Positions 974-58,668 of a stretch of DNA of 64,000 nt are shown here, one piece after another. A program made the translations under genes and the position numbers. A model generated the notes under the pieces. It was not told where the DNA came from. It worked only from the letters and a program-made list of their open reading frames with translations, and did not search any database. The stretch spans positions 159,339 to 223,338 of the forward strand of contig JADHVF010000001.1 in NCBI GenBank assembly GCA_016784145.1. The letters are read 5' to 3'. Origin of the DNA: Patescibacteria group bacterium. GTDB lineage: Bacteria > Patescibacteriota > Patescibacteriia > UBA2591 > UBA6264. How positions within the stretch are numbered: position 1 is the first letter of the stretch; each line of letters starts with the position of its first letter.

Positions 974-2092
974 TTACACATAAATCCTTGGAATTGATTG
1001 ATTTATTCTAGTGATAATTTCGTAATTGATCGTATTTATTTTACTAGCAATATCTTCAGCCTTAATTTCCTGATTGGCCTGCTTGCCTAACAAAACAACC
1101 TCGTCCCCTGCTTTAACATCTTTTAATTTAGAAACATTAACCATTGTTATGTTCATACAAATATTTCCTATAACAGAACATTTAACTCCCTGAATTAAAA
1201 CTTGTCCGCAATTAGATAGCCCCCTATCATAGCCATCCCAATACCCGACAGGCAAAACAGCAATAATTGTCCTTTGTTTAACTTGAACAGTCCTGTCATA
1301 ACCAACAAAACTCCCTTTTGGTAATGTTTTAACCTGAATTATGCTTGTTTTCCATGATAAAGCTGGTCTGAGATTAAAATGTTTCATTTTCTTTTTAGCG
1401 AATATTTTTGTGCTCCCCGACGGCCAAAGCCCATACATGGCAATGCCAATTCTAACTAAATTAAAAAATGTTGCTGAATTATTTATGGTTGAAGCAGAGC
1501 ATCCTGCGTGAATTAATGGAATATCCATTTCATTAACTATGTTTTTGAATTTTTTTGTTTGACTATTTGTATATGTCTGGTCTTTTGACTCAGAATCAGC
1601 ATAATGCGTAAACATGCCATTGATTTTAAGATTAGAAAATTTTTTAATTTCTGTAATAAAATCTTTTATTTGTTCAGGGAAAACTCCTATCCTGCTGATG
1701 CCAGTATCAACTTTAATATGAACATTAACTTGCTTGTTTATTTTTTTTGCAATTTTTGACAAAAATTTTATTTGCTCTGTTGTGTATATTGGAAATTCGA
1801 TTTTTTGTTTAAGAGCTTGTTCTATTTTTTTAGATGATAATTCATAAAAACTTAAAATAAAAACAGGAATTTTAATTCCTGATTTTTTCAAATATAATGC
1901 TTCATCTAAATTAACAACTCCTAAATAATCAACTTCTGAATCACAAACAATTTTAGCAAAATCTAATATGCCATGACCATAAGCATTTGCCTTGACAATG
2001 GCCATTATTTTTATTCGTTTACCAACTATTTTTCTAAATTGCTTTAAGTTATATTGAATATTGGATTTTTTTATTTCAACCCAAGTAAGCAT
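974..2092 (-). CDS. alr: alanine racemase
   Basis: Canonical PLP-binding motif VKANAYGHG near the N-terminus. Length 372 aa, with overall Alr fold signatures. Confidence 0.9.
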   Translation of the reverse strand: MLTWVEIKKSNIQYNLKQFRKIVGKRIKIMAIVKANAYGHGILDFAKIVCDSEVDYLGVVNLDEALYLKKSGIKIPVFILSFYELSSKKIEQALKQKIEFPIYTTEQIKFLSKIAKKINKQVNVHIKVDTGISRIGVFPEQIKDFITEIKKFSNLKINGMFTHYADSESKDQTYTNSQTKKFKNIVNEMDIPLIHAGCSASTINNSATFFNLVRIGIAMYGLWPSGSTKIFAKKKMKHFNLRPALSWKTSIIQVKTLPKGSFVGYDRTVQVKQRTIIAVLPVGYWDGYDRGLSNCGQVLIQGVKCSVIGNICMNITMVNVSKLKDVKAGDEVVLLGKQANQEIKAEDIASKINTINYEIITRINQSIPRIYV

Positions 2093-6726: not shown

Positions 6727-6762
6727 TATATTCTTGACAAAAACACCAAATCTGCTATTTTA
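6727..6762 (+). promoter_or_regulatory. promoter module copy 1: tatattcttgacaaaaacaccaaatctg (TTGACA -35 plus conserved downstream 15-mer)
   Basis: Identical 28-mer repeated at 7239..7266. Positioned about 60-85 nt upstream of the GTG start of ORF 6817. Confidence 0.5.
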
Positions 6763-6816
6763 TAAGCATTAGAAGGGATAATCCCTTTATTCATTAACAA
6801 TCAAAAGGAGACGATT

Positions 6817-7134
6817 GTGTTTATACACGAGAATAAACCCATGGACATAGAACAGATGAAAAAGTTGATAGAACAACTTCAAGCATATCTGCCATTTTAT
6901 GGAAAAATCTTGTCATGCAAACAAGATGCGCCAGATTCTCCATTAGGGAGAATTGATAAATTGTGGTTGATAAAAAGTCATCTAAAGATTACTATTGTTC
7001 AAGAAAGAATCAATAAAAAGGGACGAATATATGACAAACCGCCCTTAAGATTAAAAATACCAATAGACGAAATACATGATATTTTTTCTTTTAAGACAAA
7101 AGATGGTCGGAATATTATTCTTGAACAGGAGTAA
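6817..7134 (+). CDS. hypothetical protein (GTG start, AAGGAG RBS)
   Basis: RBS 6 nt upstream of GTG. Has its own terminator 7164..7198. Confidence 0.45.
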   Translation: MFIHENKPMDIEQMKKLIEQLQAYLPFYGKILSCKQDAPDSPLGRIDKLWLIKSHLKITIVQERINKKGRIYDKPPLRLKIPIDEIHDIFSFKTKDGRNIILEQE

Positions 7135-7274: not shown

Positions 7275-7346
7275 AAGTATATCAAAACTCAAAAGAATTT
7301 ATAATTTTTTGAGACACTTTAAAAACAAAATAAGGGGGGTTCTTAA

Positions 7347-7652
7347 ATGAGACAAACAGCACTTGCTTTTCGTGAACTAGAGATTGCATTAGAAAACCCG
7401 AGCTGGGAATATCCTGAATGCTTGATTATTAATGAAATTGGTTGCTTTTTTTATAATGGGCACAAACCAGCTGAAAAAATTCTTGGGGATTTATTAAAAT
7501 CAGATAAAAAAGATAAGAAATACATTGCTTATTGTTTTTTGTCTAAGCCTAAAAATAAATTATCAAGAGAGACACTTAAAAAAATTACTGAATTTGAAGC
7601 AGATCCAGCTAACCAAGAATTAGTCAAAGACGCAAAAAAATGTCGCGAATAA
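7347..7652 (+). CDS. hypothetical protein
   Basis: GGGGGG-type RBS. Has its own promoter module and its own terminator. Confidence 0.45.
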   Translation: MRQTALAFRELEIALENPSWEYPECLIINEIGCFFYNGHKPAEKILGDLLKSDKKDKKYIAYCFLSKPKNKLSRETLKKITEFEADPANQELVKDAKKCRE

Positions 7653-8057: not shown

Positions 8058-8132
8058 TGGCTCCGGAGGGCGGGTTCGAACCGCCGACACGCTGGTTAAC
8101 AGCCAGCTGCTCTGCCACTGAGCTACTCCGGA
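8058..8132 (-). tRNA. tRNA-Asn (anticodon GTT), CCA encoded
   Basis: Cloverleaf found in the reverse complement: acceptor TCCGGAG/CTCCGGA, anticodon stem-loop GCTGG-CTGTTAA-CCAGC, T-arm GGTTCGAACCC. Followed on the minus strand by two hairpins (8034..8057 and 8001..8031). Confidence 0.85.
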
Positions 8133-15480: not shown

Positions 15481-15530
15481 ATGCAAAAAGAAAATAAAAA
15501 ATAAAATAAATATAATAAACAAACAAAAAA
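15481..15530. repeat. direct repeat DR-L (atgcaaaaagaaaataaaaaataaaataaatataataaacaaacaaaaaa), followed by hairpin terminator 15531..15560
   Basis: 49/49 identity with DR-R at 16966..17014. Confidence 0.7.
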
Positions 15531-15804
15531 AGCACTTATTTATTAAGTGTTTTTTTAATATCCTTGTGCTAACTCTAAGACCTCGTAAAATAAAGCTCTT
15601 CGTGATAGCTCAATCTGGCAGTACCTTTTAGTTGAAATGCGTGATAATTTGAACTTAAAACTTTATTAATCTATTAATAAATATCGTGTTTGCCAATAGA
15701 ATAAAATCTAACTGCATTTTTCTTTTTATCTACAAAATCAAAAATAATTCTATATTCATAATTTATAAAAAATGCTAGAAATAGTTACTCACAGTTTAAA
15801 TAAT

Positions 15805-15863: not shown

Positions 15864-16961
15864 ATGATAAAAAAGCAAAAAAATACCACTAAAAAGGGTC
15901 TGGGTCTGGATAAATTCGATAAACGGCTTGAACACGTCCCAGCCAGCATCATCTCGAAAATAGGACAGATCGATGAATTAAAAGGAAGATGGATTGCAGG
16001 GGCAAAATTAAGTCCTCAAGTTTTAGGTCGTCTCAAACGGTCTGTTTTGATTACATCTACTGGTGCTTCTACTCGTATTGAAGGTGCAAAACTATCTGAT
16101 AAGGATGTTGAGAAAATGATGAGAGGTATTACTATCCAGAAATTTACTGACCGAGATAAACAGGAAGTTCAAGGTTATTATGAACTTTTAGAAAATGTTT
16201 TTAATTCTTGGAAAATACTTAAACTTAACGAAGGCACTATAAAGCATTTCCACGGTGAATTGCTCAAGTATGTTGATAAAGACCAAAGACATCGAGGTGA
16301 TTATAAAAAGCAGGAAAATAAAGTCCACATGGTAAATAAAGCTGGCGAGTCTGTGGGTGTTCTTTTTGATACCACCGCCGCCTATCTTACTCCCAAAGAA
16401 ATGCAGGAATTAATTGAGTGGACTAACAATGCTTTGACCGAGAAAAAATATCACTCACTTCTTATTGTCGCTAATCTCTTAGTAGAGTTTTTAAAGATTC
16501 ATCCATTCCAAGATGGTAATGGCCGGTTTTCTCGTGTTCTGACAAATCTATTGCTTCTTAAAGAGGGCTACGAATACATGCCCTATGTATCTCATGAGAA
16601 ATTGGTTGAGGATAACAAGCCAGAATACTATATTGCTTTACGTAAAAGTCAAAAAACAATGGGTTCAAAAAAAGAGGATATTACTCCATGGCTTAAATTC
16701 TTTTTCACTATGTTAATTCAACAAGCAGAAATGGCAGAAGAGCTTTTGTCAAAAGAAAACATAGAAAAACTTTTGTCTGAAAAACAGCTGGCTGTTTGGC
16801 AGTATTTACAGGAAGTAGAAGAAGTCAGCACTGGAAAGCTTGTTAAAAAAACAAAAATTTCTCGAGCTACTGTAAAACAAGCACTCGATAGATTATTACA
16901 GTTTAAGAAAATCGAACGCATTGGTCTTGGTAGAAGCGCGAGATACCGAAAACTAAAATAA
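15864..16961 (+). CDS. fic: Fic-family protein (AMPylator) with C-terminal winged-helix domain
   Basis: Canonical Fic motif HPFQDGNGRFSR. Confidence 0.9.
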   Translation: MIKKQKNTTKKGLGLDKFDKRLEHVPASIISKIGQIDELKGRWIAGAKLSPQVLGRLKRSVLITSTGASTRIEGAKLSDKDVEKMMRGITIQKFTDRDKQEVQGYYELLENVFNSWKILKLNEGTIKHFHGELLKYVDKDQRHRGDYKKQENKVHMVNKAGESVGVLFDTTAAYLTPKEMQELIEWTNNALTEKKYHSLLIVANLLVEFLKIHPFQDGNGRFSRVLTNLLLLKEGYEYMPYVSHEKLVEDNKPEYYIALRKSQKTMGSKKEDITPWLKFFFTMLIQQAEMAEELLSKENIEKLLSEKQLAVWQYLQEVEEVSTGKLVKKTKISRATVKQALDRLLQFKKIERIGLGRSARYRKLK

Positions 16962-16965
16962 ATAT

Positions 16966-17014
16966 ATGCAAAAAGAAAATAAAAAATAAAATAAATATAA
17001 TAAACAAACAAAAA
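16966..17014. repeat. direct repeat DR-R, followed by hairpin terminator gacggaag-taat-cttccgtc plus T6 (17015..17045)
   Basis: Identical to DR-L. Both are followed by a hairpin and then tttttaatat. Confidence 0.7.
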
Positions 17015-17057
17015 AGACGGAAGTAATCTTCCGTCTTTTTTAATATACAATAAATAC

Positions 17058-17664: not shown

Positions 17665-17752
17665 TGGCGGAGAGGAAGGGATTCGAACCCTTGATACCTT
17701 GCGGTATACTGCCTTTCCAAGGCAGCGCAATCGGCCTCTATGCGACCTCTCC
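17665..17752 (-). tRNA. tRNA-Ser (anticodon GGA), long variable arm, CCA encoded
   Basis: Reverse complement GGAGAGGTCGCATAGAGGCC...CTGCC-TTGGAAA-GGCAG...long variable arm...GGGTTCGAATCCCTTCCTCTCCGCCA. Confidence 0.85.
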
Positions 17753-23218: not shown

Positions 23219-23281
23219 AACATATCCTCATTTTTATTTTATTTACTCTGTTTACTCTATTGTTTGCTCTATTTTATTTTA

Positions 23282-23341
23282 CTTAGGGGCAAGGCCCCTA
23301 AGTGATTGATTTGTACTCTACTTAGGGGCAAGGCCGCTAAG
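23282..23341. repeat. two GC-rich palindromic elements (cttaggggc-aag-gcccctaag and cttaggggcaaggccgctaag)
   Basis: Read directly. Left boundary of the minisatellite. Confidence 0.6.
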
Positions 23342-23349
23342 TGAGATTC

Positions 23350-23531
23350 TTGATTACTAATTATTGATTATTGATTACTAATTATTGATTACTGATTATT
23401 GATTACTGATTATTGATTATTGATTCTTGATTATTGATTACTAATTATTGATTATTGATTATTGATTATTGATTACTAATTATTGATTATTGATTACTGA
23501 TTATTGATTATTGATTACTGATTATTGATTA
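23350..23531. repeat. heptanucleotide minisatellite, 26 contiguous units of TTGATTA / CTAATTA / CTGATTA (one TTGATTC)
   Basis: Parsed unit by unit: T A T T A T C T C T T' T T A T T T T A T T C T T C T. Noncoding, with TAA in every variant A unit. Lies between rnj and ORF 23612..23890. Confidence 0.8.
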
Positions 23532-23539
23532 CTACTCTA

Positions 23540-23560
23540 CTTAGGGGCAAGGCCCCTAAG
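23540..23560. repeat. GC-rich palindromic element cttaggggc-aag-gcccctaag (right boundary of minisatellite)
   Basis: Identical to the copy at 23282..23302. Confidence 0.6.
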
Positions 23561-23611
23561 TGAGGTAAAAGCCACTAAGGGATGTAATTCAGGAGAATTT
23601 TAAGAGTAGGA

Positions 23612-23890
23612 CTAGGATTTTTTGAAAGAGATGGTGGATTTTTTTAAAGCAATTTTATAAATATTCTCTATAAAATCTCCACCAGCATAACCAACTATTA
23701 AAGAAACCATGGCGGTTGATTTGAATATATAAGCTGCAAACATCCCAATAAATCCAGACAAAAATGTCATTGTTAAAAAATAAAATAAATCAAACTTTAC
23801 ATTTTTATATGAAAATTGGTGTTTTATAAAACCAACTAATCCCCTGATTACTCCTCCGCAAAAGCCTGCGATTAAAATTTGCCATTCCAT
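23612..23890 (-). CDS. small membrane protein
   Basis: Hydrophobic ORF. Confidence 0.35.
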   Translation of the reverse strand: MEWQILIAGFCGGVIRGLVGFIKHQFSYKNVKFDLFYFLTMTFLSGFIGMFAAYIFKSTAMVSLIVGYAGGDFIENIYKIALKKSTISFKKS

Positions 23891-23901
23891 AATTTTTATT
23901 T

Positions 23902-28432: not shown

Positions 28433-30418
28433 ATGACTGATAAAATCAGTACTGAAAAAATTTGTTTTTCAAACCCGAAAGAATCAAATGTTTATTCTAA
28501 AATTTATGCTGTTAAGCCAGGTGAAAAATTTTTAAAAGAATTTGGCCAATTGATGATAATCTTTGATTTTGGGTTTAAGAAAGAAGTGAATGACAAAATA
28601 GTTGACAACCTTAAAAATTGGATTGGGAATTTTACTATTTTTGCTCAAGATAGTTTTTATAAAAAAGAAAAAATTAAAAAAGAAACAGAAGAAAATTTTG
28701 AAAATTTTCTACAAAAAATAAATAATTGGATGATTGAAGAAAAATCAGAATATGGAAAGTTTTTTGATGAATACATAGATGATATCAATATTAAAATAGC
28801 TTTATTAACTGAAAAAAATATTTACTTCAGTCAAGTTGGAGAAATCCAAGCACATATAATTCAAGACCAAGCAATTCAAAAAATATCAGCCAGCAAAAAT
28901 AAATCTAACAAATTCTCAGATATTGTTAGTGGAGAAATAGACAAGGATTCTGTCTTGATATTTAATACAAAAAACTTATTTGATTATTTTTCAAAAGAAA
29001 AAATAATACAAATAATAGAAACAACTCCCGTGAAAAAAATTGGCAATGCTATAAAAAAATTACTAGCAAACAATGATAGTTATAAAAATAATTTAGCCTG
29101 CCTAATCTTGTCTAATCAAAAAAAGATAACTGCTCTCCCTCAATCAAAGGTCTCAAAAAAAACTACTATAATGCAAGTCGAATCTGAAACTAAAGATAAA
29201 TATTTTAAAAAAGAAAAAGATAATCAACCAACTAAAATGAAACTTGAAATTAAAAAAGGCAAACCAAAATCAAGCATTATTCACAAAATACTCTTTCTGA
29301 TTTTAATAATTTTAGCAATCCTCTTCATCAGCAGTGTTGTAAAATTAACCAAACAAGAAATTGACCAAAACAAGAATAAAGAATATCAAACAGCTAGTGA
29401 TAATTTTTATAAAAAAATAAAAGCTCTTGACATGGCAATTGCCTTTAAAGATAAAAACAAAACAATTAAAATATTTTCCGAAATCAAAGAGATATTAAAC
29501 ATTTTCCCTAAACAAACAAACGAGCAGATTCAAACCTATAAATTATTAAACTCTGAATATTTTAAAAAAAGAAATAAATTCTACAAAATAAAAACAATCA
29601 CAGAACCAAATCTTTTATTTGACCTGTCTGAAATAGACACAAACATACAAGCTGATGGGTGGACAAACATTGGAGATGATTTTTATATTTTTAATTCATT
29701 AAATAATTACATTTATACTTTTAACATATCATCAAATGAATCTGAAATATTAAATAATTCATCTTCTAATATAGGTAGAATAAAAAAAATACTATCATTT
29801 GATAGTGATAATTTAATAGGAATTACACAAACTAATGACTTGATTAATTTTAATATAATAGACAAAGAAATAACATCATTAAAATTAAAATCAAACAAGA
29901 AACTAATGGAATTCAACGACATTTGTATATATAATGATCGTCTTTATGCATTAAATTCTTCAAACAATCAAATCTATAAATATTCAAAAACAATTGATGG
30001 TTTTGATAAAGAAGAAAAATGGATAAAGGATGAATCATCCGTATCTAATGGACTAAATATTTCAATTGATGGCAATATTTATGTCTTGTTAAAAAATGGC
30101 GAAATTATTAAATTTTTCAGAAACAAAGAAGCACAATTTAACCAAACAAGAATAGAGCCATTAATTTCTTCTATTGACCCTGGTATAATGAATAAAAATG
30201 GTGACAAAATTAAGCTATATTCTGATGCTGACATTGATAACATATATCTTTTAGATGGAAAGACAAAGCGTCTGATTATTTTTGATAAACAAGGAAAATC
30301 AAAGCAGCAACTTTATTTCCCTCAGTTTAATAATCTGAAAGATTTTATTATAAGTAAAAATGAACAAAAAGCTTGGCTTTTAAACGCCAACAAGATATTT
30401 GAAATAAATCTGGAATAA
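28433..30418 (+). CDS. hypothetical single-pass membrane protein with C-terminal beta-propeller-like repeats
   Basis: TM segment ILFLILIILAILFISSVV at about residue 290. The C-terminal half contains repeated D-x-x-[IL]Y-[VIL] motifs (IYTFN, LYALN, IYVLL, IYLLD). Confidence 0.45.
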   Translation: MTDKISTEKICFSNPKESNVYSKIYAVKPGEKFLKEFGQLMIIFDFGFKKEVNDKIVDNLKNWIGNFTIFAQDSFYKKEKIKKETEENFENFLQKINNWMIEEKSEYGKFFDEYIDDINIKIALLTEKNIYFSQVGEIQAHIIQDQAIQKISASKNKSNKFSDIVSGEIDKDSVLIFNTKNLFDYFSKEKIIQIIETTPVKKIGNAIKKLLANNDSYKNNLACLILSNQKKITALPQSKVSKKTTIMQVESETKDKYFKKEKDNQPTKMKLEIKKGKPKSSIIHKILFLILIILAILFISSVVKLTKQEIDQNKNKEYQTASDNFYKKIKALDMAIAFKDKNKTIKIFSEIKEILNIFPKQTNEQIQTYKLLNSEYFKKRNKFYKIKTITEPNLLFDLSEIDTNIQADGWTNIGDDFYIFNSLNNYIYTFNISSNESEILNNSSSNIGRIKKILSFDSDNLIGITQTNDLINFNIIDKEITSLKLKSNKKLMEFNDICIYNDRLYALNSSNNQIYKYSKTIDGFDKEEKWIKDESSVSNGLNISIDGNIYVLLKNGEIIKFFRNKEAQFNQTRIEPLISSIDPGIMNKNGDKIKLYSDADIDNIYLLDGKTKRLIIFDKQGKSKQQLYFPQFNNLKDFIISKNEQKAWLLNANKIFEINLE

Positions 30419-30458
30419 ATACTAATAGTCAAAATTAGAAATTACCACCAAATTCCAA

Positions 30459-30551
30459 GAAACAAGATACAAACAAATATCAACAAATAAATTCCAAATA
30501 AAATAACCAAGATTATTACATCTTGGTTATTGTTTATTTACTGTATTCTAC
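30459..30551 (+). other. conserved 3'-element copy 1 (gaaacaagatacaa ... caaataaattcc ... hairpin aataaccaagat/atcttggttatt ... tactgtattcta)
   Basis: Homologous to 51800..51930. Hairpin spans 30502..30531. Confidence 0.55.
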
Positions 30552-43499: not shown

Positions 43500-46400
43500 A
43501 TGTTCACTCATCTTCATGTTCATAGCCATTACTCTCTTTTAGACGGACTATCTAAAATAGATGAATTAATTGCTCAAGCAAAAAAATTTAAAATGAAATC
43601 CATTGCCCTAACTGATCATGGAGTAATGTATGGGTCTATTGAATTTTATCAAAAAGCAAAACAAGCTGGCATTAAGCCAATCATTGGATTAGAAGCATAT
43701 TTAGCGCCTGATGGATTGCATTCAAAAACTAGAAAAAATAGATATCATATTACTTTGCTAGCAAAAAATAATCAAGGATATAAAAATCTTTTAAAACTAA
43801 CTTCAATCGCTCACTTAGAAGGATTTTACTACAAACCAAGAATTGACCATCAGGTTCTAAAAAAACATTCACAAGGAATAATTGCTCTAAGCGGATGTTT
43901 ACAAGGAGAAGTTCCTCAAATGATAATCAACCAACAACTAGCCAAGGCAAATAAAGCCATCAAAAAATATATATCTATTTTTGGTAAGAAAAATTTTTAT
44001 CTAGAAATTCAGCATCACCCAACCCTATCAAAGCAAGAAATAGTCAATAAAACTCTTAAAAAATTAGCAAGCAAACATAAACTTGAACTAGTTGCTTCAG
44101 CCGATGTTCATTACATAAAAAAAGAAGACGATAAAATACAAGACATCTTGCTTTGTATTCAAACCAAGAAAAAAATAAACGACAAAAACCGTCTATCCAT
44201 GCTAGGGGAAAACTACTGCCTACATTCTCCAGAAGAAATGGCCAAAAAAATGAAAAAATATCCTGAGGCATTAAAAAATACTATGAAAATTGCCAAACAG
44301 TGCAATGTTGAAATTGATCTTGGAAAACCGCGTCTCCCCTACTTCTCTTTACCAAAAGGAAAAACAGAAGATGAATTTTTAAAAGAATTATGTGAAAAAA
44401 ATATTCCCAAAAAATATCCTAAAACAACTGCTTTATTTCTAAAACAAATAAAAAAAAGATTGTCCCATGAGTTAGAAATAATCAGTAAAACAGGATTTTC
44501 TTCTTATTTTCTGATTGTACAAGATTTTGTTAATTGGGCAAAAATAAATAAAATTGTTATAGGCCCTGGTAGAGGATCTGCGGCTGGCTCTATTATTTCT
44601 TTTTTATTAGGCATTACAAGTATTGACCCCTTAGAATATGGCTTACTTTTTGAAAGGTTTATGACTGAAGACCGAATCTCTCCACCTGATATTGACCTTG
44701 ATTTTGCTGACACTAGAAGAGATGAAGTTATTCAATATGTAGAAGAAAAATATGGTCGAGACCATGTTGCTCAAATTATTACTTTTGGAACAATGGCCTC
44801 AAGAGCTGCCATAAGAGATGTGGGCAGGGTGCTTGATTTCCCGTATTCTTTTTGTGATAAACTGGCCAAAATGATACCAATGGGCGAAACCTTAACTAAT
44901 TCTTTAAAAATATCTGATGAACTTAGAAATTTTTATCAATCAACCCCAGATGCAAAAGAAATCATTGACTCTGCTAAAAGATTAGAAGGCACTATAAGAC
45001 ATGCTTCAAAACATGCTTGCGGACTAGTTATTTCTCCACAAGCTTTAACCGAATATACTCCAATCCAATATGATGTTTCAGTTAAAAAAGAAAAAACAAT
45101 AATAACTCAATATGAAATGCATGCTGTAGAAGATATTGGATTACTTAAAATGGATTTTTTAGGATTAAAAAATCTAACTATCATAGAAAATACAATCAAA
45201 ATTTTAAAAAAGACACAAAATATAAACATTGACATTAATAAAATCTCTCTCACTAATAAAAAAGCATTTTCAATCTTGAAAAAAGCTAATACAAAAGGAG
45301 TGTTTCAACTAGAAAGCGATGGCATGAGGCGTTACTTAAAACAATTAAAACCAAATTGTTTGGATGACATTATTTCAATCGTGGCCCTATATCGCCCCGG
45401 TCCAATGGAATTAATTCCTGAATATATTGCCAGAAAAAATGGTAGGAAAAAAATTGAATACATCCACCCAAAATTAAAGCCAATCCTGACTAATACATAT
45501 GGCATTGCTGTTTATCAAGAGCAAGTATTACAAATTGTCAGAGAGCTTGCCAGCTTCACTCTTTCAGAAGCAGATGTTTTAAGAAAAGCCGTTGGCAAAA
45601 AAATCCCAAAACTTTTAAAAGACCAGAAAATAAAATTCATTCAAGGGTGTATAAAAAATAAAATTGACAAAAACATAGCTGAAAAAATATTTTCTTTTAT
45701 AGAGCCATTTGCTCAATATGCATTTAATAAGAGTCATTCTGCTTGTTATGCTATGATTGCTTATCAAACTGCCTTCTTAAAAGCAAATTATCCGGTTGAA
45801 TTCATGGCTTCTTTGTTAATATCAAACCAAAAAAACATCGAAGAAATGGCTAGTATTATAGAATCAGCCAAGAAGATAGATATAAATGTCTTGCCTCCAG
45901 AAATCAATGAAAGCTACAAAAATTTTACGGTTCTAAATAATAAAATACGATTTGGGTTACTAGCAATTAAAAATGTTGGTCAAGGAATTGTTCAAGAAAT
46001 AATAGATGAAAGAGAAGAAAATGGCCTTTTTCAAAATTTAGAAAACTTCTTAGACAGAGTAAATACAAGAAATCTAAATAAGAAATCCTTGGAAAGTCTA
46101 ATTAAGAGTGGGGCCATGGATTGTTTTGGTGAAAGAAATCAACTTTTTCAAAATACAAAAACATTATTAGAATTTGCTAGAAAAAAACAGGCTGAAAAAA
46201 TAAACGGACAAAAAAATTTATTTAAAATTATTAATTTTGGCTCTAAAATGAGTTTAAAATTAAAAAAATACCCTGTTATTGAGCATCAACAAAAACTTTT
46301 ATGGGAAAAAGAATTATTGGGATTATTTCTCTCGTCTCATCCATTAAAAGAATATCAAAAAGTTATTAAAAAATATTCAAAAACAATTGAAGAAACAAAA

Positions 46401-46703
46401 AAAACTCAAAATAATTTTAACTCAAATACTCATAAAGTAGTTGGCATAATAACAAAAATTAAAAAAATAGTTACACACTCTAAAGAAAATATGCTTTTTG
46501 CTAAAATAGAAGATACTACTGGAGAGATTGAAGCAATTATATTCCCAAATCTTTTAAAAGCAAATAAGGACACTTTAAAAGAAAATATGATAGTGGCTAT
46601 TTCTGGCCACCTCTCAACCAAAGATGGTAGCATTAAAATAATTGCTGACAAAATTAAACAAGTAAATAAAGACATTTTAGACGATTTATTATTAAAATCA
46701 TAA
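43500..46703 (+). CDS. dnaE: DNA polymerase III subunit alpha
   Basis: PHP domain start (HLHVHSHYSLLDG) and polymerase core. Length 1067 aa. Confidence 0.93.
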   Translation: MFTHLHVHSHYSLLDGLSKIDELIAQAKKFKMKSIALTDHGVMYGSIEFYQKAKQAGIKPIIGLEAYLAPDGLHSKTRKNRYHITLLAKNNQGYKNLLKLTSIAHLEGFYYKPRIDHQVLKKHSQGIIALSGCLQGEVPQMIINQQLAKANKAIKKYISIFGKKNFYLEIQHHPTLSKQEIVNKTLKKLASKHKLELVASADVHYIKKEDDKIQDILLCIQTKKKINDKNRLSMLGENYCLHSPEEMAKKMKKYPEALKNTMKIAKQCNVEIDLGKPRLPYFSLPKGKTEDEFLKELCEKNIPKKYPKTTALFLKQIKKRLSHELEIISKTGFSSYFLIVQDFVNWAKINKIVIGPGRGSAAGSIISFLLGITSIDPLEYGLLFERFMTEDRISPPDIDLDFADTRRDEVIQYVEEKYGRDHVAQIITFGTMASRAAIRDVGRVLDFPYSFCDKLAKMIPMGETLTNSLKISDELRNFYQSTPDAKEIIDSAKRLEGTIRHASKHACGLVISPQALTEYTPIQYDVSVKKEKTIITQYEMHAVEDIGLLKMDFLGLKNLTIIENTIKILKKTQNINIDINKISLTNKKAFSILKKANTKGVFQLESDGMRRYLKQLKPNCLDDIISIVALYRPGPMELIPEYIARKNGRKKIEYIHPKLKPILTNTYGIAVYQEQVLQIVRELASFTLSEADVLRKAVGKKIPKLLKDQKIKFIQGCIKNKIDKNIAEKIFSFIEPFAQYAFNKSHSACYAMIAYQTAFLKANYPVEFMASLLISNQKNIEEMASIIESAKKIDINVLPPEINESYKNFTVLNNKIRFGLLAIKNVGQGIVQEIIDEREENGLFQNLENFLDRVNTRNLNKKSLESLIKSGAMDCFGERNQLFQNTKTLLEFARKKQAEKINGQKNLFKIINFGSKMSLKLKKYPVIEHQQKLLWEKELLGLFLSSHPLKEYQKVIKKYSKTIEETKKTQNNFNSNTHKVVGIITKIKKIVTHSKENMLFAKIEDTTGEIEAIIFPNLLKANKDTLKENMIVAISGHLSTKDGSIKIIADKIKQVNKDILDDLLLKS

Positions 46704-47852: not shown

Positions 47853-49635
47853 AAAAATAAGATATTCAATAGATACAATCAGGCACTCAACCAGTCATTT
47901 AATGGCGGCTGCTATTTTGGAATTATTTCCAGCAGCAAAATTTGGCATTGGGCCTACAATTGAAAACGGGTTTTATTATGATATTGATGTTAAAGAAAAA
48001 ATAACATCTGAAGATCTCAAACAAATCACAACCACAATGAAAAAAATGATAAAACAAAAATTACCATTTGAAAAAAAGAAATTGAGTATTCCTCAAGCTA
48101 TAAAATTATTTAATCAAACAAAACAACCATACAAGATAGAGTTATTAGAAGACATAAGCAAACGAGGAACAACAAAAATAACAGGCAAAGCAGATAAACA
48201 AGAATTTGTTACTATCTATAAATTAGGTAATTTTATAGATCTTTGTAAAGGCCCTCATGTAAAAACCACCAAAGATTTAGGGTCTTTTAAAATATCAAAA
48301 ATAGCTGGAGCATATTGGAGGGGTAGTGAAAAAAATAAAATGCTTACTAGAATATATGGAATTGGATTCAAAACTAAAGATGACCTTAAAAAACATATTA
48401 CCAAATTAGAACAAGCTGCCAAAAGAGACCACCGAAAAATAGGGCAGGCATTAGATTTATTTCAAATAAATGAAAATATTGGCCCTGGATTAGTTTTATG
48501 GCACCCAAAAGGAGCTATCTTAAAAAAAACAATTGAAGATTATATTCTTAAGGAATATATGAAAAATAAATACCAACTAGTAAGTACTCCTCATATTGCT
48601 AAATTAAATCTTTGGGAAACATCAGGGCATAATGATTTTTATAGAGAAGACATGTTCCCTGTTATGCACTTAAAAGAAACTGACAAAGAAGCCAAAGAGG
48701 ATTATCAAATAAAACCAATGAATTGCCCTTTTCATATTGCTATTTTCCAAAATCAAATAAGAAGTTATCGTGACTTGCCAGTTCGTTACACTGAACTCGG
48801 GACCGTATATCGCTATGAAAAATCAGGTGTTTTACATGGGATTACAAGAGTAAGAGGATTTACACAAGATGATGCCCATATTTTTTGCACCAAAGATCAA
48901 TTAGACGAAGAAATATCTAAAACAATTTCATTCGCCTTAAAATTATTAAAAATTTTTGGATTTAAAGAGTATAAGATTTGCCTTTCAACTCAACCTAAAA
49001 AATTTGTTGGCTCTCAACCAAACTGGAACAAATCAATCAGAGCCCTTAAAAAAGCATTAAAAAAACAGGACATAAAATTTGAAATAGACAAACAAGGAGG
49101 TTCTTTTTATGGACCAAAAATTGATATTAAAATAAAAGACTCTATTGGCAGGGAGTGGCAATGCACTACTATTCAAGTTGATTTTAACCTTCCTCAAAAG
49201 TTTAATATATGCTATATTGATGATAAGGGCAAGAAACAAGAACCAATTATGATACACAGAGCTTTGCTTGGGTCATTGGAAAGATTTATAGGAATTTTAA
49301 TCGAACATTATACAGGAGCTTTCCCTGTCTGGCTATCCCCCATCCAAGTATATATTGCCCCGGTAGGAAAAACACATCAAAAAGCAGCTAGTGCGTTAGC
49401 AAAAGAGTTAGAAGCACAAGATATTAAAGTGCAAATAGACACATTAAATGAAACAATTTCATATAAAATCAGAAAAGCTACCAAACAAAAAATTCCATAT
49501 ATTCTTGTTATTGGGGACAAGGAAACCAAAGGACGATTTTTAAATATAAGAACAAGAGGAGGAAAAATTATCAAATTAACACTAAAACAATTTATTAGCA
49601 AAATATTAAAACAAATTAAAAATAAAACTTTATGA
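47845..49635 (+). CDS. thrS: threonine--tRNA ligase (lacks N-terminal TGS domain)
   Basis: Editing-domain HxxxH (RHSTSHLMAAA), class II motifs and the zinc-site region. Uses a TGA stop. Confidence 0.9.
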   Translation: MNKKIRYSIDTIRHSTSHLMAAAILELFPAAKFGIGPTIENGFYYDIDVKEKITSEDLKQITTTMKKMIKQKLPFEKKKLSIPQAIKLFNQTKQPYKIELLEDISKRGTTKITGKADKQEFVTIYKLGNFIDLCKGPHVKTTKDLGSFKISKIAGAYWRGSEKNKMLTRIYGIGFKTKDDLKKHITKLEQAAKRDHRKIGQALDLFQINENIGPGLVLWHPKGAILKKTIEDYILKEYMKNKYQLVSTPHIAKLNLWETSGHNDFYREDMFPVMHLKETDKEAKEDYQIKPMNCPFHIAIFQNQIRSYRDLPVRYTELGTVYRYEKSGVLHGITRVRGFTQDDAHIFCTKDQLDEEISKTISFALKLLKIFGFKEYKICLSTQPKKFVGSQPNWNKSIRALKKALKKQDIKFEIDKQGGSFYGPKIDIKIKDSIGREWQCTTIQVDFNLPQKFNICYIDDKGKKQEPIMIHRALLGSLERFIGILIEHYTGAFPVWLSPIQVYIAPVGKTHQKAASALAKELEAQDIKVQIDTLNETISYKIRKATKQKIPYILVIGDKETKGRFLNIRTRGGKIIKLTLKQFISKILKQIKNKTL

Positions 49636-51752
49636 ACAAATCAAACAAAATCCTAGTTATTTTAAATATTGGCTTTGCTTTGCTATTATTTTTATTACCA
49701 AATGCAATAGCACAAGCTCAAGCAACAGAAACACTTGAACCAAATTCAGCCATAACACCAACTACTTTAACAGAACCAGTTGAGCAAGAAGTAAAAACAA
49801 TAGAAGAAAAAATTTTGACAGAGGCGGTTGAGGAAACTCTACTGAAAACAGACAAACAATCCTCTGTAGAAGTTGTTCAAGACCAAAACATAACAGCTGA
49901 TATCCTTGGCATTAAAAAGCAAAAGATACTACCAACCAGTAGATTATATACTTTTAAAAACTTTTGGAGAGGAACAAGAACTGCTTTCACCTTTAACCCT
50001 ATTAAAAAAGCCAACCTCCAATTAAGATATGCTAATGAGCAATTGATTGAAGCTAAAAAAATGGCTAACAAAGAAGATAATCATGAATTAGTAATCAAAA
50101 GCATAACCAAATATAATGAACAAATAGCCAATGCCTCTGATGTGATTAAAAAAGCATCAAAGCAAGACATTGATAAGGTTTTAGAATTTGAAGATAAAAT
50201 AATCAAGAATTCTTTTCAACACCAAAACTTAATTGAAGGCATAGCCAACAAATTAAAACCTGTTATGACCGAAAGGATAATCAAACTTAAAGAAAATGGC
50301 ATTAAGCACCTTGCCAAAACAATTGAAAACTCTGTAGAGCCTGAAAAAATTGAAGGCAAAATAAACCTAATGATTAAAAATCAAACAGCTAGCGAATTTA
50401 AAAATTTTAAAAACCTCGAAATCCTTAAAGCAATCGAAGATAAAATGCCTGAAGAAAGAAAAATAATCATTAAAAATATTCAGAAAAAAACACTTGAAAA
50501 ATTAGGCAATGATTTAGAAAAAATGGAACAAAGCCAAAGAGAGAGGTTTAATCAATATATTAAATATACTGGCGGAGACAAAATTCAACACTTAAAAATT
50601 ATTGATGACATTAATCACCTCGAAGTTCCAGAGAATATTCGCCAAGAAATGGCTAAAGCAAAAGAACAAGCCATTGAACAAATCGAAGAAAAGATAAAAA
50701 AACTCGAGACAAAAGAACATAAACAAGAATTTTTCCGTCATTTAGAGGAAGGGCGAATGGAAGACCTTCGTATTGTAAAAGAGTTAGAGAATAATTTATC
50801 TCCTGAAGTTATTGAAAAAGTTATTGAGATTAAAAATAAAACTTTTAATAAATTTAAGGAAAAAATGGCCAATGCCAAAACGCCTGAGAAACAAGAAAAA
50901 ATTTTTAAAGAAATGAGCGAAATAAAAGATGTTAAACAATTTGAAGTTTTTAAAGAAATTGAAAAAATAATTCCAGAGGATAAACAAGAATTTTTCAAAA
51001 AAATGAAAGAAAAATCAATCAATGAAATGGAAACCAGAATTAAAAATGTTAAAAACAAAGAACAGAGAGAAATGATTTTAGAAAGAATATCAGGAGATAG
51101 GCCTGAACAAATTGAATTAATCAAAGAGTTTATTCCTGCTGGTGAAGCAAGAGAATATATAATGAATAAACAGGCAGTTAAAATAAATAGAAAAATAAAA
51201 GAAATAAATAATCCCAACAGATTGCAAATAATGGAAGAGCGCATTACTAATCAAGTTGATCTCAAAAGGGAAATAGAAAAAAGAACTCCTGCCATTTTTG
51301 AAAGGATTAAAGAGAAAAACAATGAAATTATTAATAATCAAGTTCAAATAGAAACTAATAAATTAATAAAACAGAAAATACTACCTGCTAAAGAAATTAA
51401 AGAATTAGAAAAAATTTGGAAGGAAAAACTAAAAAACAAGGAACAAATAACAACAGACGAACTAATGCCATTTCTAAAAAACCTTGACCTTTCAAATGAA
51501 AAAATTCAACAAATTAAACAACAAGCATCCAAAATAGAAAAAAATACTTTGATTAAAAAACTTGTGCCAATCAAAAATTTACCTAAAACCATTAATAAGC
51601 TTGAGGAAGAATATAGGAATATAAAAAGAATGGATTTTGATGATAACAGGGTTGAAAAAGAGTTTAATGATAACAGGGTTGAAAAAGAGTTTAATAAAAC
51701 AAAAAGTTCAACAGGGGGGATTTGGGATAGAATTAAAAACAAACTCCAATAA
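49632..51752 (+). CDS. secreted Lys/Glu-rich coiled-coil protein with C-terminal tandem repeat
   Basis: Signal peptide (LLLFLLPNAIAQAQA). Low-complexity helical sequence. 30-bp tandem duplication at 51641..51700 (DDNRVEKEFN x2). Confidence 0.5.
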   Translation: MNKSNKILVILNIGFALLLFLLPNAIAQAQATETLEPNSAITPTTLTEPVEQEVKTIEEKILTEAVEETLLKTDKQSSVEVVQDQNITADILGIKKQKILPTSRLYTFKNFWRGTRTAFTFNPIKKANLQLRYANEQLIEAKKMANKEDNHELVIKSITKYNEQIANASDVIKKASKQDIDKVLEFEDKIIKNSFQHQNLIEGIANKLKPVMTERIIKLKENGIKHLAKTIENSVEPEKIEGKINLMIKNQTASEFKNFKNLEILKAIEDKMPEERKIIIKNIQKKTLEKLGNDLEKMEQSQRERFNQYIKYTGGDKIQHLKIIDDINHLEVPENIRQEMAKAKEQAIEQIEEKIKKLETKEHKQEFFRHLEEGRMEDLRIVKELENNLSPEVIEKVIEIKNKTFNKFKEKMANAKTPEKQEKIFKEMSEIKDVKQFEVFKEIEKIIPEDKQEFFKKMKEKSINEMETRIKNVKNKEQREMILERISGDRPEQIELIKEFIPAGEAREYIMNKQAVKINRKIKEINNPNRLQIMEERITNQVDLKREIEKRTPAIFERIKEKNNEIINNQVQIETNKLIKQKILPAKEIKELEKIWKEKLKNKEQITTDELMPFLKNLDLSNEKIQQIKQQASKIEKNTLIKKLVPIKNLPKTINKLEEEYRNIKRMDFDDNRVEKEFNDNRVEKEFNKTKSSTGGIWDRIKNKLQ

Positions 51753-51799: not shown

Positions 51800-51930
51800 G
51801 AAACAAGATACAAGATACAAATAAATTCCTCAACAAACCCAGTAAGCAGAATAGATGAAGTAAACAATAATCAATAACCAAACAAAAAAACCAAGAAATG
51901 TTTGGTTATTGTTATTCTTACTGAATTCTA
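51800..51930 (+). other. conserved 3'-element copy 2 (gaaacaagatacaa gatacaa ataaattcc ... hairpin aataaccaaaca/tgtttggttatt ... tactgaattcta)
   Basis: Homologous to 30459..30551, with a covarying inner stem. Hairpin spans 51873..51910. Confidence 0.55.
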
Positions 51931-51997
51931 ATAAATAATATACAAAAAGAGATATTAATTATTTTTTAAATTATTTCAAACAAATATCAACAAACAT

Positions 51998-53251
51998 ATG
52001 AAATATCATATTATCACCTTTGGCTGCCAAATGAATGAAAATGACTCAATTAAAATAAAAGCAATGCTTCAAGAACATGGCCTCAAACCATCTTTGACAC
52101 TTGAACAATCTGATATAATCATAGTGAATATGTGCTCTGTTCGACAATCTGCTGTTAATAGAGTTTTTGGATTGCTTCAAAAACAAGGACTTCAAAAAAA
52201 GAATCAAATTAAAATTTTATTTGGCTGTGTTTTGCCAGCTGATAAAAAAAAGTTAAGCCAAAAATTTAACTTAATTTTAAATATTAACAAACTTGAACAA
52301 CTTAAAGAAATATTACCAAACAAAAACATTAACAATATATGTGAACACACTAAAACTTCTAAGGCATCAAAATATGTTCCAATTATGACTGGTTGTAATA
52401 ATTTTTGTACTTATTGCGTTGTCCCATATACTAGAGGCAGGGAAATAAGCAAGGATTACAAAACAATAATAAAACAAATAAAAGATTTGCTTGAATCAGA
52501 CACCAAAGAAATAACATTACTAGGTCAAAATGTGAATTCATATAAAGATAAAAACATTGATTTTCCTAAATTACTAAAACTTATCTCAAAGTTGCCGAAA
52601 AAATTTTGGCTAAGATTTCTAACATCACACCCTAAAGACATCTCTAATAAACTAATTAATGTCATGGCTAATAACGAAAAAATTACAGAATACCTGCATT
52701 TACCAGTTCAATCAGGTAATAATGAAATATTAGACAAAATGAACAGAGGCTATACCATAGAGCAATATAAAAAAATAATAACTCACGCTCGCAATCAAGT
52801 AACCAATATCTGTATTTCAACTGACATTATAGTGGGTTTTCCTGGAGAAACCAAACAACAATTTGAACAAACAGCTAGATTAATGAAATGCGCAAAATTT
52901 GATATGGCTTATATTGCTGAATACTCTCCTCGACCCAATACTCCTGCTAAACAAATGAAAAACAATGTGCCTCAAGTAACTAAATCTGCTCGGCGAAAAA
53001 TTTTAGATAAAATAATAGCCAAAACAGCATTAGAAAATAATAAAAAATATTTAGACAAGGTTATTAATGTATTGATTAATAATAAAAAGCAAGGAGATTA
53101 TTTTGGGAAAACAAGTAATTTTAAAAATATAAAAATCAAGTCAAACAACCTGATTAATGATAAAACCAATTTAAAAAATAAATTTGTAAAAGCCAAGGTT
53201 ACTTCAGTTACTCCATGGAACTTGGAAGGATTGTTAATTAAAAATAACTAA
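51998..53251 (+). CDS. miaB: tRNA-2-methylthio-N6-dimethylallyladenosine synthase (MiaB-family methylthiotransferase)
   Basis: N-terminal MTTase domain (ITFGCQMNEND). Radical-SAM motif CNNFCTYCVVPYTRG. TRAM-like C-terminus. Confidence 0.8.
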   Translation: MKYHIITFGCQMNENDSIKIKAMLQEHGLKPSLTLEQSDIIIVNMCSVRQSAVNRVFGLLQKQGLQKKNQIKILFGCVLPADKKKLSQKFNLILNINKLEQLKEILPNKNINNICEHTKTSKASKYVPIMTGCNNFCTYCVVPYTRGREISKDYKTIIKQIKDLLESDTKEITLLGQNVNSYKDKNIDFPKLLKLISKLPKKFWLRFLTSHPKDISNKLINVMANNEKITEYLHLPVQSGNNEILDKMNRGYTIEQYKKIITHARNQVTNICISTDIIVGFPGETKQQFEQTARLMKCAKFDMAYIAEYSPRPNTPAKQMKNNVPQVTKSARRKILDKIIAKTALENNKKYLDKVINVLINNKKQGDYFGKTSNFKNIKIKSNNLINDKTNLKNKFVKAKVTSVTPWNLEGLLIKNN

Positions 53252-57884: not shown

Positions 57885-58180
57885 CTTAGACAAGCGAGCG
57901 ATTGCGTTCAACTATTTTGTTGAATGAGGAAAGTCCGAACACTCCCCTTTTTAATTAAAACTTTGTTTTAAAATAAAAGGGAGCAAGGTAGCGGGTAATA
58001 CCCGTCGTCAGTCATATTTTTATGGCTAGATAGAGGTGCGAACAGTGACGACTTAAATTCGAAAGAATTTAGTTGCCCTATATTTTAGGGTAAATCTCGA
58101 TAGAAATATTGAGAATGAAACGGCTAAATCTTTACCCGGGTGAAAGACCAAAAAAAATCTGTTATATTAATAACTGATTA
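57885..58180 (+). ncRNA. rnpB: RNase P RNA (bacterial, reduced)
   Basis: P4 5' strand GAGGAAAGUCCGAAC and P4 3' strand AGAAUGAAACGGCUAAAU read directly, with a P3-like hairpin gttcaac...gttgaa between them. Boundaries are approximate. Confidence 0.6.
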
Positions 58181-58269
58181 GGTGGGTCGCTAGAACTAAA
58201 TTGCAAAATTTAGTCAAGATAAATAATCGCTGCTCATTTATTGAGTACAGAATTCGGCTTATAGCTTGT

Positions 58270-58668
58270 TTAGGTCCTTTTCATTGCTTGGTTGGCCATT
58301 TTGTCGGCCTGATAATTTTTTTCTCTAGGAATATGATAAAAATTAATTTTATCAAAAACCTGACACAAGTTCCAAACTTTTATAAATAAAAATCCTAATT
58401 CAGGATTTTTTATTTTATATTTTCCATTAATATGATTAACAACTAACTGGCTATCTAAATAACAATCCACTTGTGTTGCTTTCATTTTTCTAACTTGGTT
58501 AAGCCCAATTATAAGAGCTTCATATTCTGCCTGATTATTTGTTTTAACACCTAAAAACTTTGCTATTTCTTTTATAACTTGTTTTTTGTCATTATAAATA
58601 ACAACTCCTGCTCCTGCTCGCCCTGGATTTCCTTTTGAACATCCGTCTGTGTAAATTATTAATTTCAT
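58270..58668 (-). CDS. rnhA: ribonuclease HI
   Basis: IYTDGCSKGNPG start and conserved DEDD residues (EYEALI, ADKMAN). Confidence 0.85.
   Translation of the reverse strand: MKLIIYTDGCSKGNPGRAGAGVVIYNDKKQVIKEIAKFLGVKTNNQAEYEALIIGLNQVRKMKATQVDCYLDSQLVVNHINGKYKIKNPELGFLFIKVWNLCQVFDKINFYHIPREKNYQADKMANQAMKRT

Follow-up and report, generated by a model that had tools for sequence, protein, structure and literature searches.

Two related hairpins at gene ends

The window analyzed here is a 64,000-nucleotide (nt) stretch of a Patescibacteria group bacterium (GenBank assembly GCA_016784145.1, contig JADHVF010000001.1, positions 159,339 to 223,338), in which two gene ends carry similar A/T-rich hairpin elements, W1 (copy 1, 30445-30550) and W2 (copy 2, 51800-51930). 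W1 is found downstream of open reading frame (ORF) 661 (28433-30418, plus strand; NCBI protein ISS06_00960), which encodes a membrane protein with one internal hydrophobic segment and no Pfam family and converges across W1 with rplL, the gene for ribosomal protein L7/L12 (30548-30991, minus strand). Read on the minus strand, W1 begins right after the rplL stop codon, and as this codon (30548-30550, minus strand) is inside the last W1 block, the element lies between convergent genes. W2 is located downstream of ORF706 (49632-51752, plus strand), which encodes a DUF5667 protein with a signal peptide, and upstream of a radical-SAM MiaB/RimO-like gene on the same strand (51998-53251, plus).

The shared blocks are runs of 7-nt words. 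In W1, an A/C-rich arm (30445-30513, plus strand) with the words CCACCAA ATTCCAA GAAACAA GATACAA ... ATAAATTCCAA ... TAACCAA GAT holds blocks 1 and 2 and runs into a tip hairpin (30502-30531, no strand assigned), whose 12-bp arms (30502-30513 and 30520-30531) contain three G-C pairs and enclose a 6-nt loop (30514-30519). This hairpin has A-rich sequence before it and T-rich sequence after it, is terminator-like on both strands, and is followed by a short G/T-rich arm or tail, GTTTATTTACTGTATTCTA (30532-30550, plus strand), the last three bases of which are the rplL stop codon (TAG, minus strand). W2 starts with an A/C-rich arm (51800-51829, plus strand) reading GAAACAA GATACAA GATACAA ATAAATTCC, again with blocks 1 and 2, and continues with 43 W2-specific nt (51830-51872, plus strand; 6 nt in W1) that end in AAACAA TAATCAA and lead into the W2 tip hairpin (51873-51910, no strand assigned; arms 51873-51884 and 51899-51910, 12 bp, or 13 bp with C51872-G51911; loop 51885-51898) and a short G/T-rich arm or tail, GTTATTCTTACTGAATTCTA (51911-51930, plus strand). 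The W2 loop contains AACCAAGA, identical to a string in the W1 5' arm, which hints at arm duplication or template switching.

Block 1, GAAACAAGATACAA, occurs exactly at 30459-30472 and 51800-51813, with no other exact copy in the window by motif search. Block 2, CAAATAAATTCC, is exact at 30484-30495 and 51818-51829; the hairpin outer arms AATAACCA/TGGTTATT follow at 30502-30509/30524-30531 in W1 and 51873-51880/51903-51910 in W2; and TACTG[T/A]ATTCTA closes both copies (30539-30550 and 51919-51930). Nine of the 12 pairs in each stem are identical, and the remaining three, consecutive inner pairs, are changed on both sides (W1 to W2: G-C to A-T, A-T to C-G, T-A to A-T), with unlike loops of 6 and 14 nt. 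Identity within the blocks is about 98%, with large indels between them. Furthermore, an 18-mer, CAAACAAATATCAACAAA (30470-30487 in W1, plus strand), recurs exactly at 51977-51994 (plus strand; blastn-short, E = 1e-4), on the 3' side of the W2 hairpin, as a solo fragment of A/C words that ends 3 nt before the ATG (51998) of the MiaB/RimO-like gene. Given this placement, the relation between W1 and W2 is not strictly collinear.

A chance likeness of two ordinary A/T-rich terminators in a 30% GC genome could be suspected from block 2 alone, which is not above expectation in the window (2 found versus 2.5 expected with at most one mismatch), and from the A-rich, low-complexity nature of the spacers. 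Against this, gapped local alignment of the spacer pair scores 106.75, a value that none of 1,000 dinucleotide shuffles reaches (mean 64.6, SD 6.2, maximum 88.5; z = 6.8), and the 14-mer, 12-13-mer, 18-mer, and 12-mer are all exact matches. Elsewhere in the window, terminators consist of a GC-rich hairpin with an A run and a T run at its sides and are unrelated in sequence to W1 and W2, indicating that the shared blocks are not the usual terminator context of this genome, and we regard chance as next to negligible. W1 and W2 are therefore homologous, and the initial annotation of this DNA, which had described the same blocks in the same order with the same outer stem and altered inner pairs and had judged them to be more than generic terminators, was right on both counts. 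The hairpins themselves fold better than shuffled sequence (W1, -14.5 kcal/mol, z = -4.5; W2, -15.6 kcal/mol, z = -5.1).

Two simple origins for the pair were rejected. Descent of the shared 3' sequence from a duplication of paralogous upstream genes does not fit the proteins of ORF661 and ORF706, between which BLASTP finds no similarity, in agreement with the initial annotation. The copies are direct and 21 kb apart, as attL and attR of an island might be, but the interval carries rplJL, pyrH, argS, dnaE, and thrS. In addition, inspection of the region beside W2 for a decayed rplL fragment gave no similarity beyond TAG.

From the two copies, the initial annotation had proposed a dedicated 3' untranslated region (UTR) RNA element, that is, a target of a small RNA (sRNA) or protein, a 3'-derived sRNA, or a localisation or stability signal, which would co-regulate two genes for large non-cytoplasmic proteins and keep its hairpin under selection for RNA structure. 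The position of both copies downstream of such genes, the common block order, the three compensated pairs, and a similarity far above chance all fit this proposal. What holds of its covariation argument is that the hairpin is kept despite the inner-stem change; two sequences, however, give no covariation statistics. Across the 64-kb window and a further 9.7 kb of flanking DNA (right side, 9.1 kb; left side, 0.5 kb; 73.7 kb of the genome in all), searches with blastn-short, motifs, and an nhmmer profile gave no third copy, which also goes against a shared signal. The same is true of L010, a low-coverage contig of a near-identical strain, which has two substitutions in the 5' blocks (30479 and 30484) versus two in the whole 1,986-nt ORF661. 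Nor does any Rfam family come near its threshold on the element (best 28 bits versus a gathering threshold of 55; none on the elements of nine other loci). Finally, a terminated plus-strand RNA would usually be released before or at the start of the block TACTGNATTCTA, which begins 8-9 nt past the stem and includes the rplL stop codon, and for the minus-strand (rplL) RNA it is the 5' blocks that lie past the point of release.

The orthologous spacers of relatives provide a further comparison. Near-identical strains are present in several ENA and Logan assemblies, and the next relatives share 36-41% identity in ORF661, 26-45% in the DUF5667 protein, and 43-52% in ORF381, with the synteny tsaB-ORF661-rplL-rplJ-pyrH-argS kept. 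The shared blocks are found neither in the ORF661|rplL spacer of L004 and L008/L009 nor at the DUF5667|miaB junction of L021, L026/L027, and L052. The former spacer holds instead a GC-rich hairpin flanked by A and T runs (aaaaggggcgcaaaggcgtcccttttaaaaaa in L004, aaaaaaaatccaatgc..gcattggattttctttttt in L008/L009; the L006 spacer is masked by N). The latter junction measures 8 nt in L026/L027, consists of a 90-nt spacer with a plain terminator in L021, and has in L052 a nominal 294-nt gap, of which the first ~110 nt resemble DUF5667 C-terminal coding sequence, together with the same plain terminator (aaaaaggggctgattagccccttttt in L021 and L052). The conservation in relatives that a 3'-UTR signal leads one to look for is thus missing, with unrelated hairpins or only 8 nt in its place; in these spacers, the position and the predicted terminator role are conserved, and the sequence is lineage-specific.

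Two side observations concern the same genes. The C-terminal repeat DNRVEKEFN of ORF706 (51640-51700) varies in copy number between near-identical strains (706 amino acids here versus 721 in L012), and dnaE of L052 (5394-9968) carries an intein with a LAGLIDADG_3 endonuclease, which dnaE of the window (43500-46703) does not.

With respect to transcription termination, the W1 hairpin is the sole terminator-like hairpin in the ORF661/rplL spacer and is flagged on both strands by a terminator scan (12 pairs, 3 G-C, loop 6, tails GTTTATTT and TTATTTGG). It probably serves as a bidirectional terminator for ORF661 and the rplJL operon, in place of the GC-rich terminator of the relatives. W2, with its 14-nt loop, appears to be a weaker candidate; it stands at a junction that is 8 nt in L026, where the two genes are presumably co-transcribed, given this distance.

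A dispersed family of inverted repeats built of 7-nt words

Pattern searches covered 596 Gb of species-representative genomes, JGI metagenomes, and IMG/VR viral contigs; the source genome is in neither the genome nor the metagenome collection. The 3' pattern of stem arm plus tail (TGGTTATTGTT N3-6 TACTGNATTCTA) has no match in the genome, metagenome, or viral collections and is common to W1 and W2 only. The 5' pattern, GAAACAAGATACAA-N(0-30)-CAAATAAATTCC, is absent from the viral contigs and present in 4 genome contigs (Omnitrophica WOR_2, Moranbacteria, Saccharibacteria, and one unclassified metagenome-assembled genome) and 10 JGI metagenome contigs, which make up nine distinct elements. For the 26 specified bases of blocks 1 and 2 we estimate at most ~0.1 chance matches, even taking all DNA as 30% GC, and the elements are alike outside these bases too. 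Both spacings seen in the window recur: the W2 type (4 nt) as the same 30-mer in L032 (Omnitrophica) and L044, and the W1 type (11 nt) as 37-mers with a different insert in L033, L034, and L037. These matches are unlikely to be assembly artefacts, because L035, L036, L039, and L042 represent a single locus recovered in four different samples.

Without use of the search pattern, a scan for 7-nt-spaced CAA or TTG adds three members, namely, a second element in L034 (L034b), one in L038, and one in L026/L027. The last (6828-6970) belongs to a relative of the window organism and lies between co-directional dnaE and ORF386, a junction at which the window has 3 nt, so that presence and absence of elements are seen at orthologous junctions. 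No annotated phage or plasmid record matched the element. An 18-mer of the 3' arm gave four matches in viral contigs; three of these look like chance, and the fourth, L063 (IMG/VR contig, ~850-930), is a tandem array in which TTGGTTA alternates with TTGTGTC/TTGTATC, the vocabulary of the 3' arms.

The resulting CAA-type family (defined from L026, L032-L035, L037, L038, L040, L043, and L044) has a consistent anatomy. The elements outside the window are imperfect inverted repeats of 120-200 nt that fill spacers and start 0-30 nt past a stop codon, several of them inside the TAA itself; W1, which ends on the rplL stop codon (gap 0), is in line with this, although such short spacers make it weak evidence. 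The 5' arm is made almost solely of A and C, in words of the form NNNNCAA (TAACCAA, GAAACAA, GATACAA, ATAAATTCCAA, TAATCAA, TATCCAA), and the 3' arm is its G/T-rich complement in TTGNNNN words (TTGGAAT, TTGGTTA, TTGTTTC, TTGTATC). For the outside elements, folding predicts hairpins of 37-72 pairs with energies of -27 to -62 kcal/mol whichever strand is taken, and no strand asymmetry of folding or of G-U pairs was found among them. The AT-rich elements sit in contigs of 45-49% GC.

W1 and W2 share this construction. Their lag-7 self-identity (0.46 and 0.45) is comparable to that of the members (0.39-0.64; 0.46-0.64 in all but L043) versus 0.31 in control spacers of the window, and 7-nt-spaced CAA chains are found at 30445-30476, 51800-51824, and 51861-51885. 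In an alignment, the 5'-arm word order ..GAAACAA GATACAA .. ATAAATTCCAA .. is common to the members and both window copies, and L026, L034b, and L038 arm A, which were found without the pattern, share an ACAAG..ACAAATAA core. In a search of the window with a hidden Markov model (HMM) built from the outside 3' arms only, the two best matches are the 5' arm of W1 (E = 3e-4) and, after it, that of W2 (E = 4e-4), each as its reverse complement. Likewise, the 13-mer TCTTGGTTATTGT, which spans the W1 3' stem arm, is shared with L033 and L043, in both cases in the 3' arm, and its reverse complement is part of the L026 5' arm.

The compensated pairs of the two tip hairpins can be read in the same terms. 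The inner-stem junctions are TAACCAA|GAT and ATC|TTGGTTA in W1 and TAACCAA|ACA and TGT|TTGGTTA in W2, and both junction types occur in other members (ATCTTGGTTATTGT in L033 and L043, TTGTTTGGTTATTGTT in L040). In each copy the arms run on into another neighbouring word, so the compensated pairs are a consequence of inverted-repeat construction, and, judging from these junctions, selection on a single conserved RNA fold need not be invoked.

The genes beside the members are functionally unrelated. The same blocks that in the window follow two non-cytoplasmic protein genes are found elsewhere after genes for DnaE, TatD, NusB/YceD, an M14 peptidase, a HAD hydrolase, and a DHH phosphoesterase, and other neighbours encode a 7TM protein and a PD40/FlgD_ig protein. 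There is thus no tie to a gene class, and a dedicated 3'-UTR signal for the two large protein genes, already missing from the orthologous spacers, appears very improbable to us.

Two further explanations would dispense with a common, dispersed family. Heptamer arrays might arise in each spacer by replication slippage, and hairpins by chance or selection, with neither common descent nor mobility. Word duplications are indeed visible (GATACAA GATACAA in W2; CAAACAAATA/TCAACAAATA in W1), and heptanucleotide repeats are the commonest long simple repeats in bacteria according to the summary of Mrazek 2007 in PMC4679880. A one-orientation array at 23318-23573, described below, also fits. Slippage, however, leaves unexplained why the same non-repetitive word order, GAAACAA GATACAA ... 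ATAAATTCCAA, is met across phyla and why AT-rich elements lie in 45-49% GC contigs, and we give it very little credence. Slightly less credible still is a purely local event, in which one spacer was copied into the other by segmental duplication or gene conversion and no wider family exists. It would account for a 3' arm and tail unique to this genome and for blocks of ~98% identity across large indels, but not for 5' blocks with the same word order and hairpin architecture in nine elements of other phyla or for an independent 3'-arm HMM that matches both copies. Local copying is nevertheless the last step of the account that we prefer.

We conclude, with a probability of roughly 0.7, that W1 and W2 represent a dispersed inverted-repeat element composed of 7-nt words, of which both are truncated copies without an ORF. 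They are treated as relics and not as full members because the long 3' arm complementary to the whole 5' arm is missing: pairing is limited to 12-13 bp and the A/U flanks, the plus strand around W1 and W2 offers block 1 no TTGTATCTTGTTTC-like partner, and of the 3' side three or four words are left, GTT(T)AT.. TTACTG(T/A)ATTCTA. Their minimum free energies, -17 to -29 kcal/mol, are about half those of full members, for which the range is -36 to -62 kcal/mol.

The window contains one further array with a similar vocabulary. In the acylphosphatase-RNase J spacer (23219-23901), ~33 heptamers of the type TTGATTA/CTGATTA/CTAATTA/TTGATTC follow each other in one orientation (23318-23573, plus strand). 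Their lag-7 self-identity is 0.72, the 3'-arm HMM matches weakly (E = 0.64), and the word reads TAATCAA on the minus strand, as is also used in W2, L037, and L040; the array may possibly be related to the hairpin family. Three copies of a GC-rich palindrome, CTACTTAGGGGCAAGGCCCCTAAGTGA (23272, 23311, and 23530), bracket the array, with a fourth at 15185 and a similar palindrome near 13540. GC-rich palindromes (e.g., gcccgcctcg..cgaggcggg) are also nested in the loops of the AT-rich heptamer hairpins of L033 (~1400-1440, minus strand) and L043 (~2838-2880), as though another small repeat had been inserted into an existing one.

Several other features of the window were recorded. A 54-nt exact direct repeat (15481-15534 and 16966-17019) brackets a Fic/DOC-family gene (15864-16961), with a different terminator hairpin after each copy; from this arrangement the region looks like an inserted gene cassette. 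A promoter-like block, tattcTTGACAaaaacaccaaatctg (~6760-6800 and ~7290-7330), precedes each of two small adjacent ORFs (6817-7134 and 7347-7652), and positions 778-957, with two copies of ..cacgggcatgtaaaataat.., are repeated just past the left window end (L019 12377-12600) at 95-97% identity. Rfam matches in the window are a ribosomal protein L10 leader (RF00557, 31552-31681, upstream of rplJ) and a class A RNase P RNA (57886-58277), both at or just above the gathering score, and tRNAs are found at 8058-8132 (tRNA-Asn) and 17665-17752 (tRNA-Ser).

Inverted heptamer arms around four-helix-bundle genes

One member of the family, L038, encloses a gene. Its A/C arm (186-264) and G/T arm (630-700) bracket a 120-amino-acid ORF, the whole flanked by a stop codon on one side and by the start codon (ATG) of the following gene on the other, and the predicted product is a four-helix-bundle "23S rRNA intervening-sequence protein" (PF05635, E = 1e-14; TIGR02436, E = 5e-21). 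The arm duplex is predicted at -62.8 kcal/mol versus -27 for shuffled arms. L038 is the sole ORF carrier; 11 of the 12 outside members and both window copies are without the ORF, and a tblastn search with the L038 protein gave no four-helix-bundle gene in the window or in the other loci examined.

Homologues were located by tblastn in 31 plasmid records, chiefly from Nostoc, Planktothrix, and other cyanobacteria, with further ones from Bernardetia, Chlorohelix, and Monoglobus. The TIGR02436 genes on these plasmids (L046-L062) are small inserts inside operons, often defence operons, at junctions such as DISARM drmD|MmeI, cas2|cas1, hsdS|hsdR, helicase|N6-methylase, and DUF1156|HEPN. Tandem heptamers upstream, with the reverse complement right after the stop codon, accompany 10 or 11 of the 14 plasmid genes examined (e.g., (AATTCGT)4/(ACGAATT)4, (AATTCGC)4/(GCGAATT)4, (AATTCAA)4/(TTGAATT)5, and (AATCCCC)6(AATCGTA)4/(TACGATT..)), and their arm duplexes reach -79 kcal/mol; the exceptions have direct repeats (L046) or other repeats (L048 and L057). 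The heptamer differs between plasmid cassettes and is complementary within each, and in L051 a TTGGAAT array, a word of the present family, stands beside a Dolichospermum four-helix-bundle gene.

We tentatively consider, at well below even odds, that inverted heptamer arrays are the ends of a widespread cassette carrying an Avd-like or "23S rRNA intervening sequence (IVS)" four-helix-bundle gene, which would insert at gene junctions, with rRNA as a special case, and whose arms the protein or a partner would generate or mobilise. ORF-less hairpins and arrays would then be relics or non-autonomous derivatives. The hosts of such a cassette would span candidate phyla radiation (CPR) bacteria, Omnitrophica, Cyanobacteria, Chloroflexota, and Bacteroidota, and its relics would include W1, W2, perhaps the window array at 23318-23573, the short tandemly repeated repetitive (STRR) sequences of cyanobacteria, which are heptamer repeats, and the paired heptamer arrays of Xanthomonas. 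Full-text searches, whose incomplete coverage makes this weak evidence, found no literature linking four-helix-bundle genes with heptamer repeats and none describing such hairpins in CPR bacteria or a CAA-type family.

The bracketing of an intervening-sequence-protein gene by the L038 arms also bears on function. The hairpins, chiefly the long stems of the full-length members, might be not terminators but RNase III processing sites or 3' stabilisers that cut or insulate cistrons. rRNA IVS with this ORF have terminal inverted repeats that are cleaved by RNase III (PMC4990558, PMC11270868), in line with this idea. The 37-72 predicted pairs of full-length members would fit it, as would the location of cassettes inside operons and of the L026 element between the co-directional dnaE and ORF386. 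It fits the window copies less well, as RNase III prefers roughly two helical turns, more than the 12-13 bp of uninterrupted stem in W1 and W2. We regard it as an unlikely reading overall and keep RNase III processing of the long stems in full-length members as a live alternative.

Origin of the window copies and relation to known repeats

The truncated-copy reading suggests a short series of events. One variant in this lineage would have lost most of its 3' arm, and this truncated variant would then have been copied into the second spacer, or both copies would derive from one truncated master. A single truncated variant that was then copied is suggested because W1 and W2 have the same short 3' side, found nowhere else; truncation plus copying accounts for the short tail they share, for the blocks that are identical, and for the large indels. 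The doubled GATACAA in W2, a 10-nt near-duplication in W1, and the 43-nt insert in W2 would be the outcome of subsequent word duplications and indels. The remaining tip hairpins of 12-13 bp, with their A-rich and U-rich flanks, may now act as intrinsic terminators. On a larger scale, the family would spread horizontally; transfer between genomes is suggested by the presence or absence of elements at conserved junctions, the near-identical arms across phyla, and the AT-rich elements in 45-49% GC contigs. The short hairpins, in turn, may derive from protein-coding cassettes through ORF loss.

A number of points weigh against this account. The census of the source genome consists of two copies in 73.7 kb of a 237-kb contig, and 9 of the 12 outside members were found by the pattern derived from W1 and W2, so that the shared 26 nt are partly an ascertainment effect. 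Truncation follows from comparison, and W1 and W2 might be a distinct solo-arm form. Inspection of the flanks showed no target-site duplication, and neither a transposase nor a clean empty site was identified in the loci examined, which leaves patchy distribution as the one basis for mobility. Folding energies favour neither strand, so that RNA-level and DNA-level roles are indistinguishable. As for termination, the stems are A/U-rich (3 G-C of 12 pairs), and the simple terminator scan does not flag W2, whose 14-nt loop exceeds 8 nt. Within the CAA type, lastly, L038 is the single case for the link to four-helix-bundle genes.

The closest comparison is with heptamer repeats found between genes in other bacteria. 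Xanthomonas has paired convergent GGGAATC arrays, 70-75 cases of which are able to form stem-loops, and Nostoc/Anabaena have GGGGA(C/T)T arrays (PMC4692102). TAACTGA repeats are common to Beggiatoaceae, Cyanobacteria, and Bacteroidetes, and for these PMC4679880 proposes horizontal transfer and states that "no mechanism is evident." A term search in the full text of these two sources gave no link of the repeats to four-helix-bundle genes. The present family resembles these repeats in its 7-nt unit, intergenic location, and patchy distribution across phyla; it differs from them in that its arms are an ordered string of different NNNNCAA words conserved between phyla and in that its hosts are CPR bacteria, Omnitrophica, and the like.

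The rRNA IVS with an S23p/23S_rRNA_IVP ORF have terminal inverted repeats that form a long stem (28 bp in Coxiella) cut by RNase III, a GC content below that of the host, and a sporadic distribution from which horizontal transfer was inferred (PMC4990558), and IVP ORFs also occur in rRNA insertions of CPR bacteria (PMC11270868). L038 is like them in having a small four-helix-bundle ORF between inverted arms. The present elements, in contrast, lie between protein genes and have heptamer-periodic arms, a feature not reported in PMC4990558 or PMC11270868.

Like bidirectional intrinsic terminators, W1 is a hairpin preceded by A-rich and followed by U-rich sequence in a spacer of convergent genes, where the relatives have canonical terminators. 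Unlike them, it has an A/U-rich stem (3 G-C pairs of 12) and ~60 nt of conserved upstream words not needed for termination, and W2 has a 14-nt loop and lies between co-directional genes. A further comparison is with repetitive extragenic palindromic (REP) sequences, bacterial interspersed mosaic elements (BIMEs), and terminator-carrying MITEs (miniature transposable elements with inverted repeats; Correia, ERIC, and RUP), which are short, ORF-less gene-end hairpins that can act as terminators or mRNA stabilisers, vary between strains, and outnumber their coding partners. REPs are species-specific palindromes of 20-40 nt, and MITEs have defined terminal repeats and target-site duplications. The present elements are likewise short, hairpin-forming, and placed at gene ends, but they are heptamer-built with arms of variable length, were found without a duplication, and have the same sequence across phyla.

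In this genome, two odd A/T-rich gene-end hairpins are thereby explained as repeat relics, probably with terminator duty beside the rplJL operon, and the regulatory proposal is left without support. The interest of the finding lies mainly in the family and in its apparent link to a four-helix-bundle cassette, as the data join three puzzles treated separately until now, namely, intergenic heptamer repeats (STRR, GGGAATC, and TAACTGA), rRNA intervening sequences, and the very common four-helix-bundle genes. Should this link prove general, culturable cyanobacteria would offer a way to test both where heptamer repeats come from and what the four-helix-bundle protein does, and annotators of CPR genomes would gain a repeat class to mask or model.

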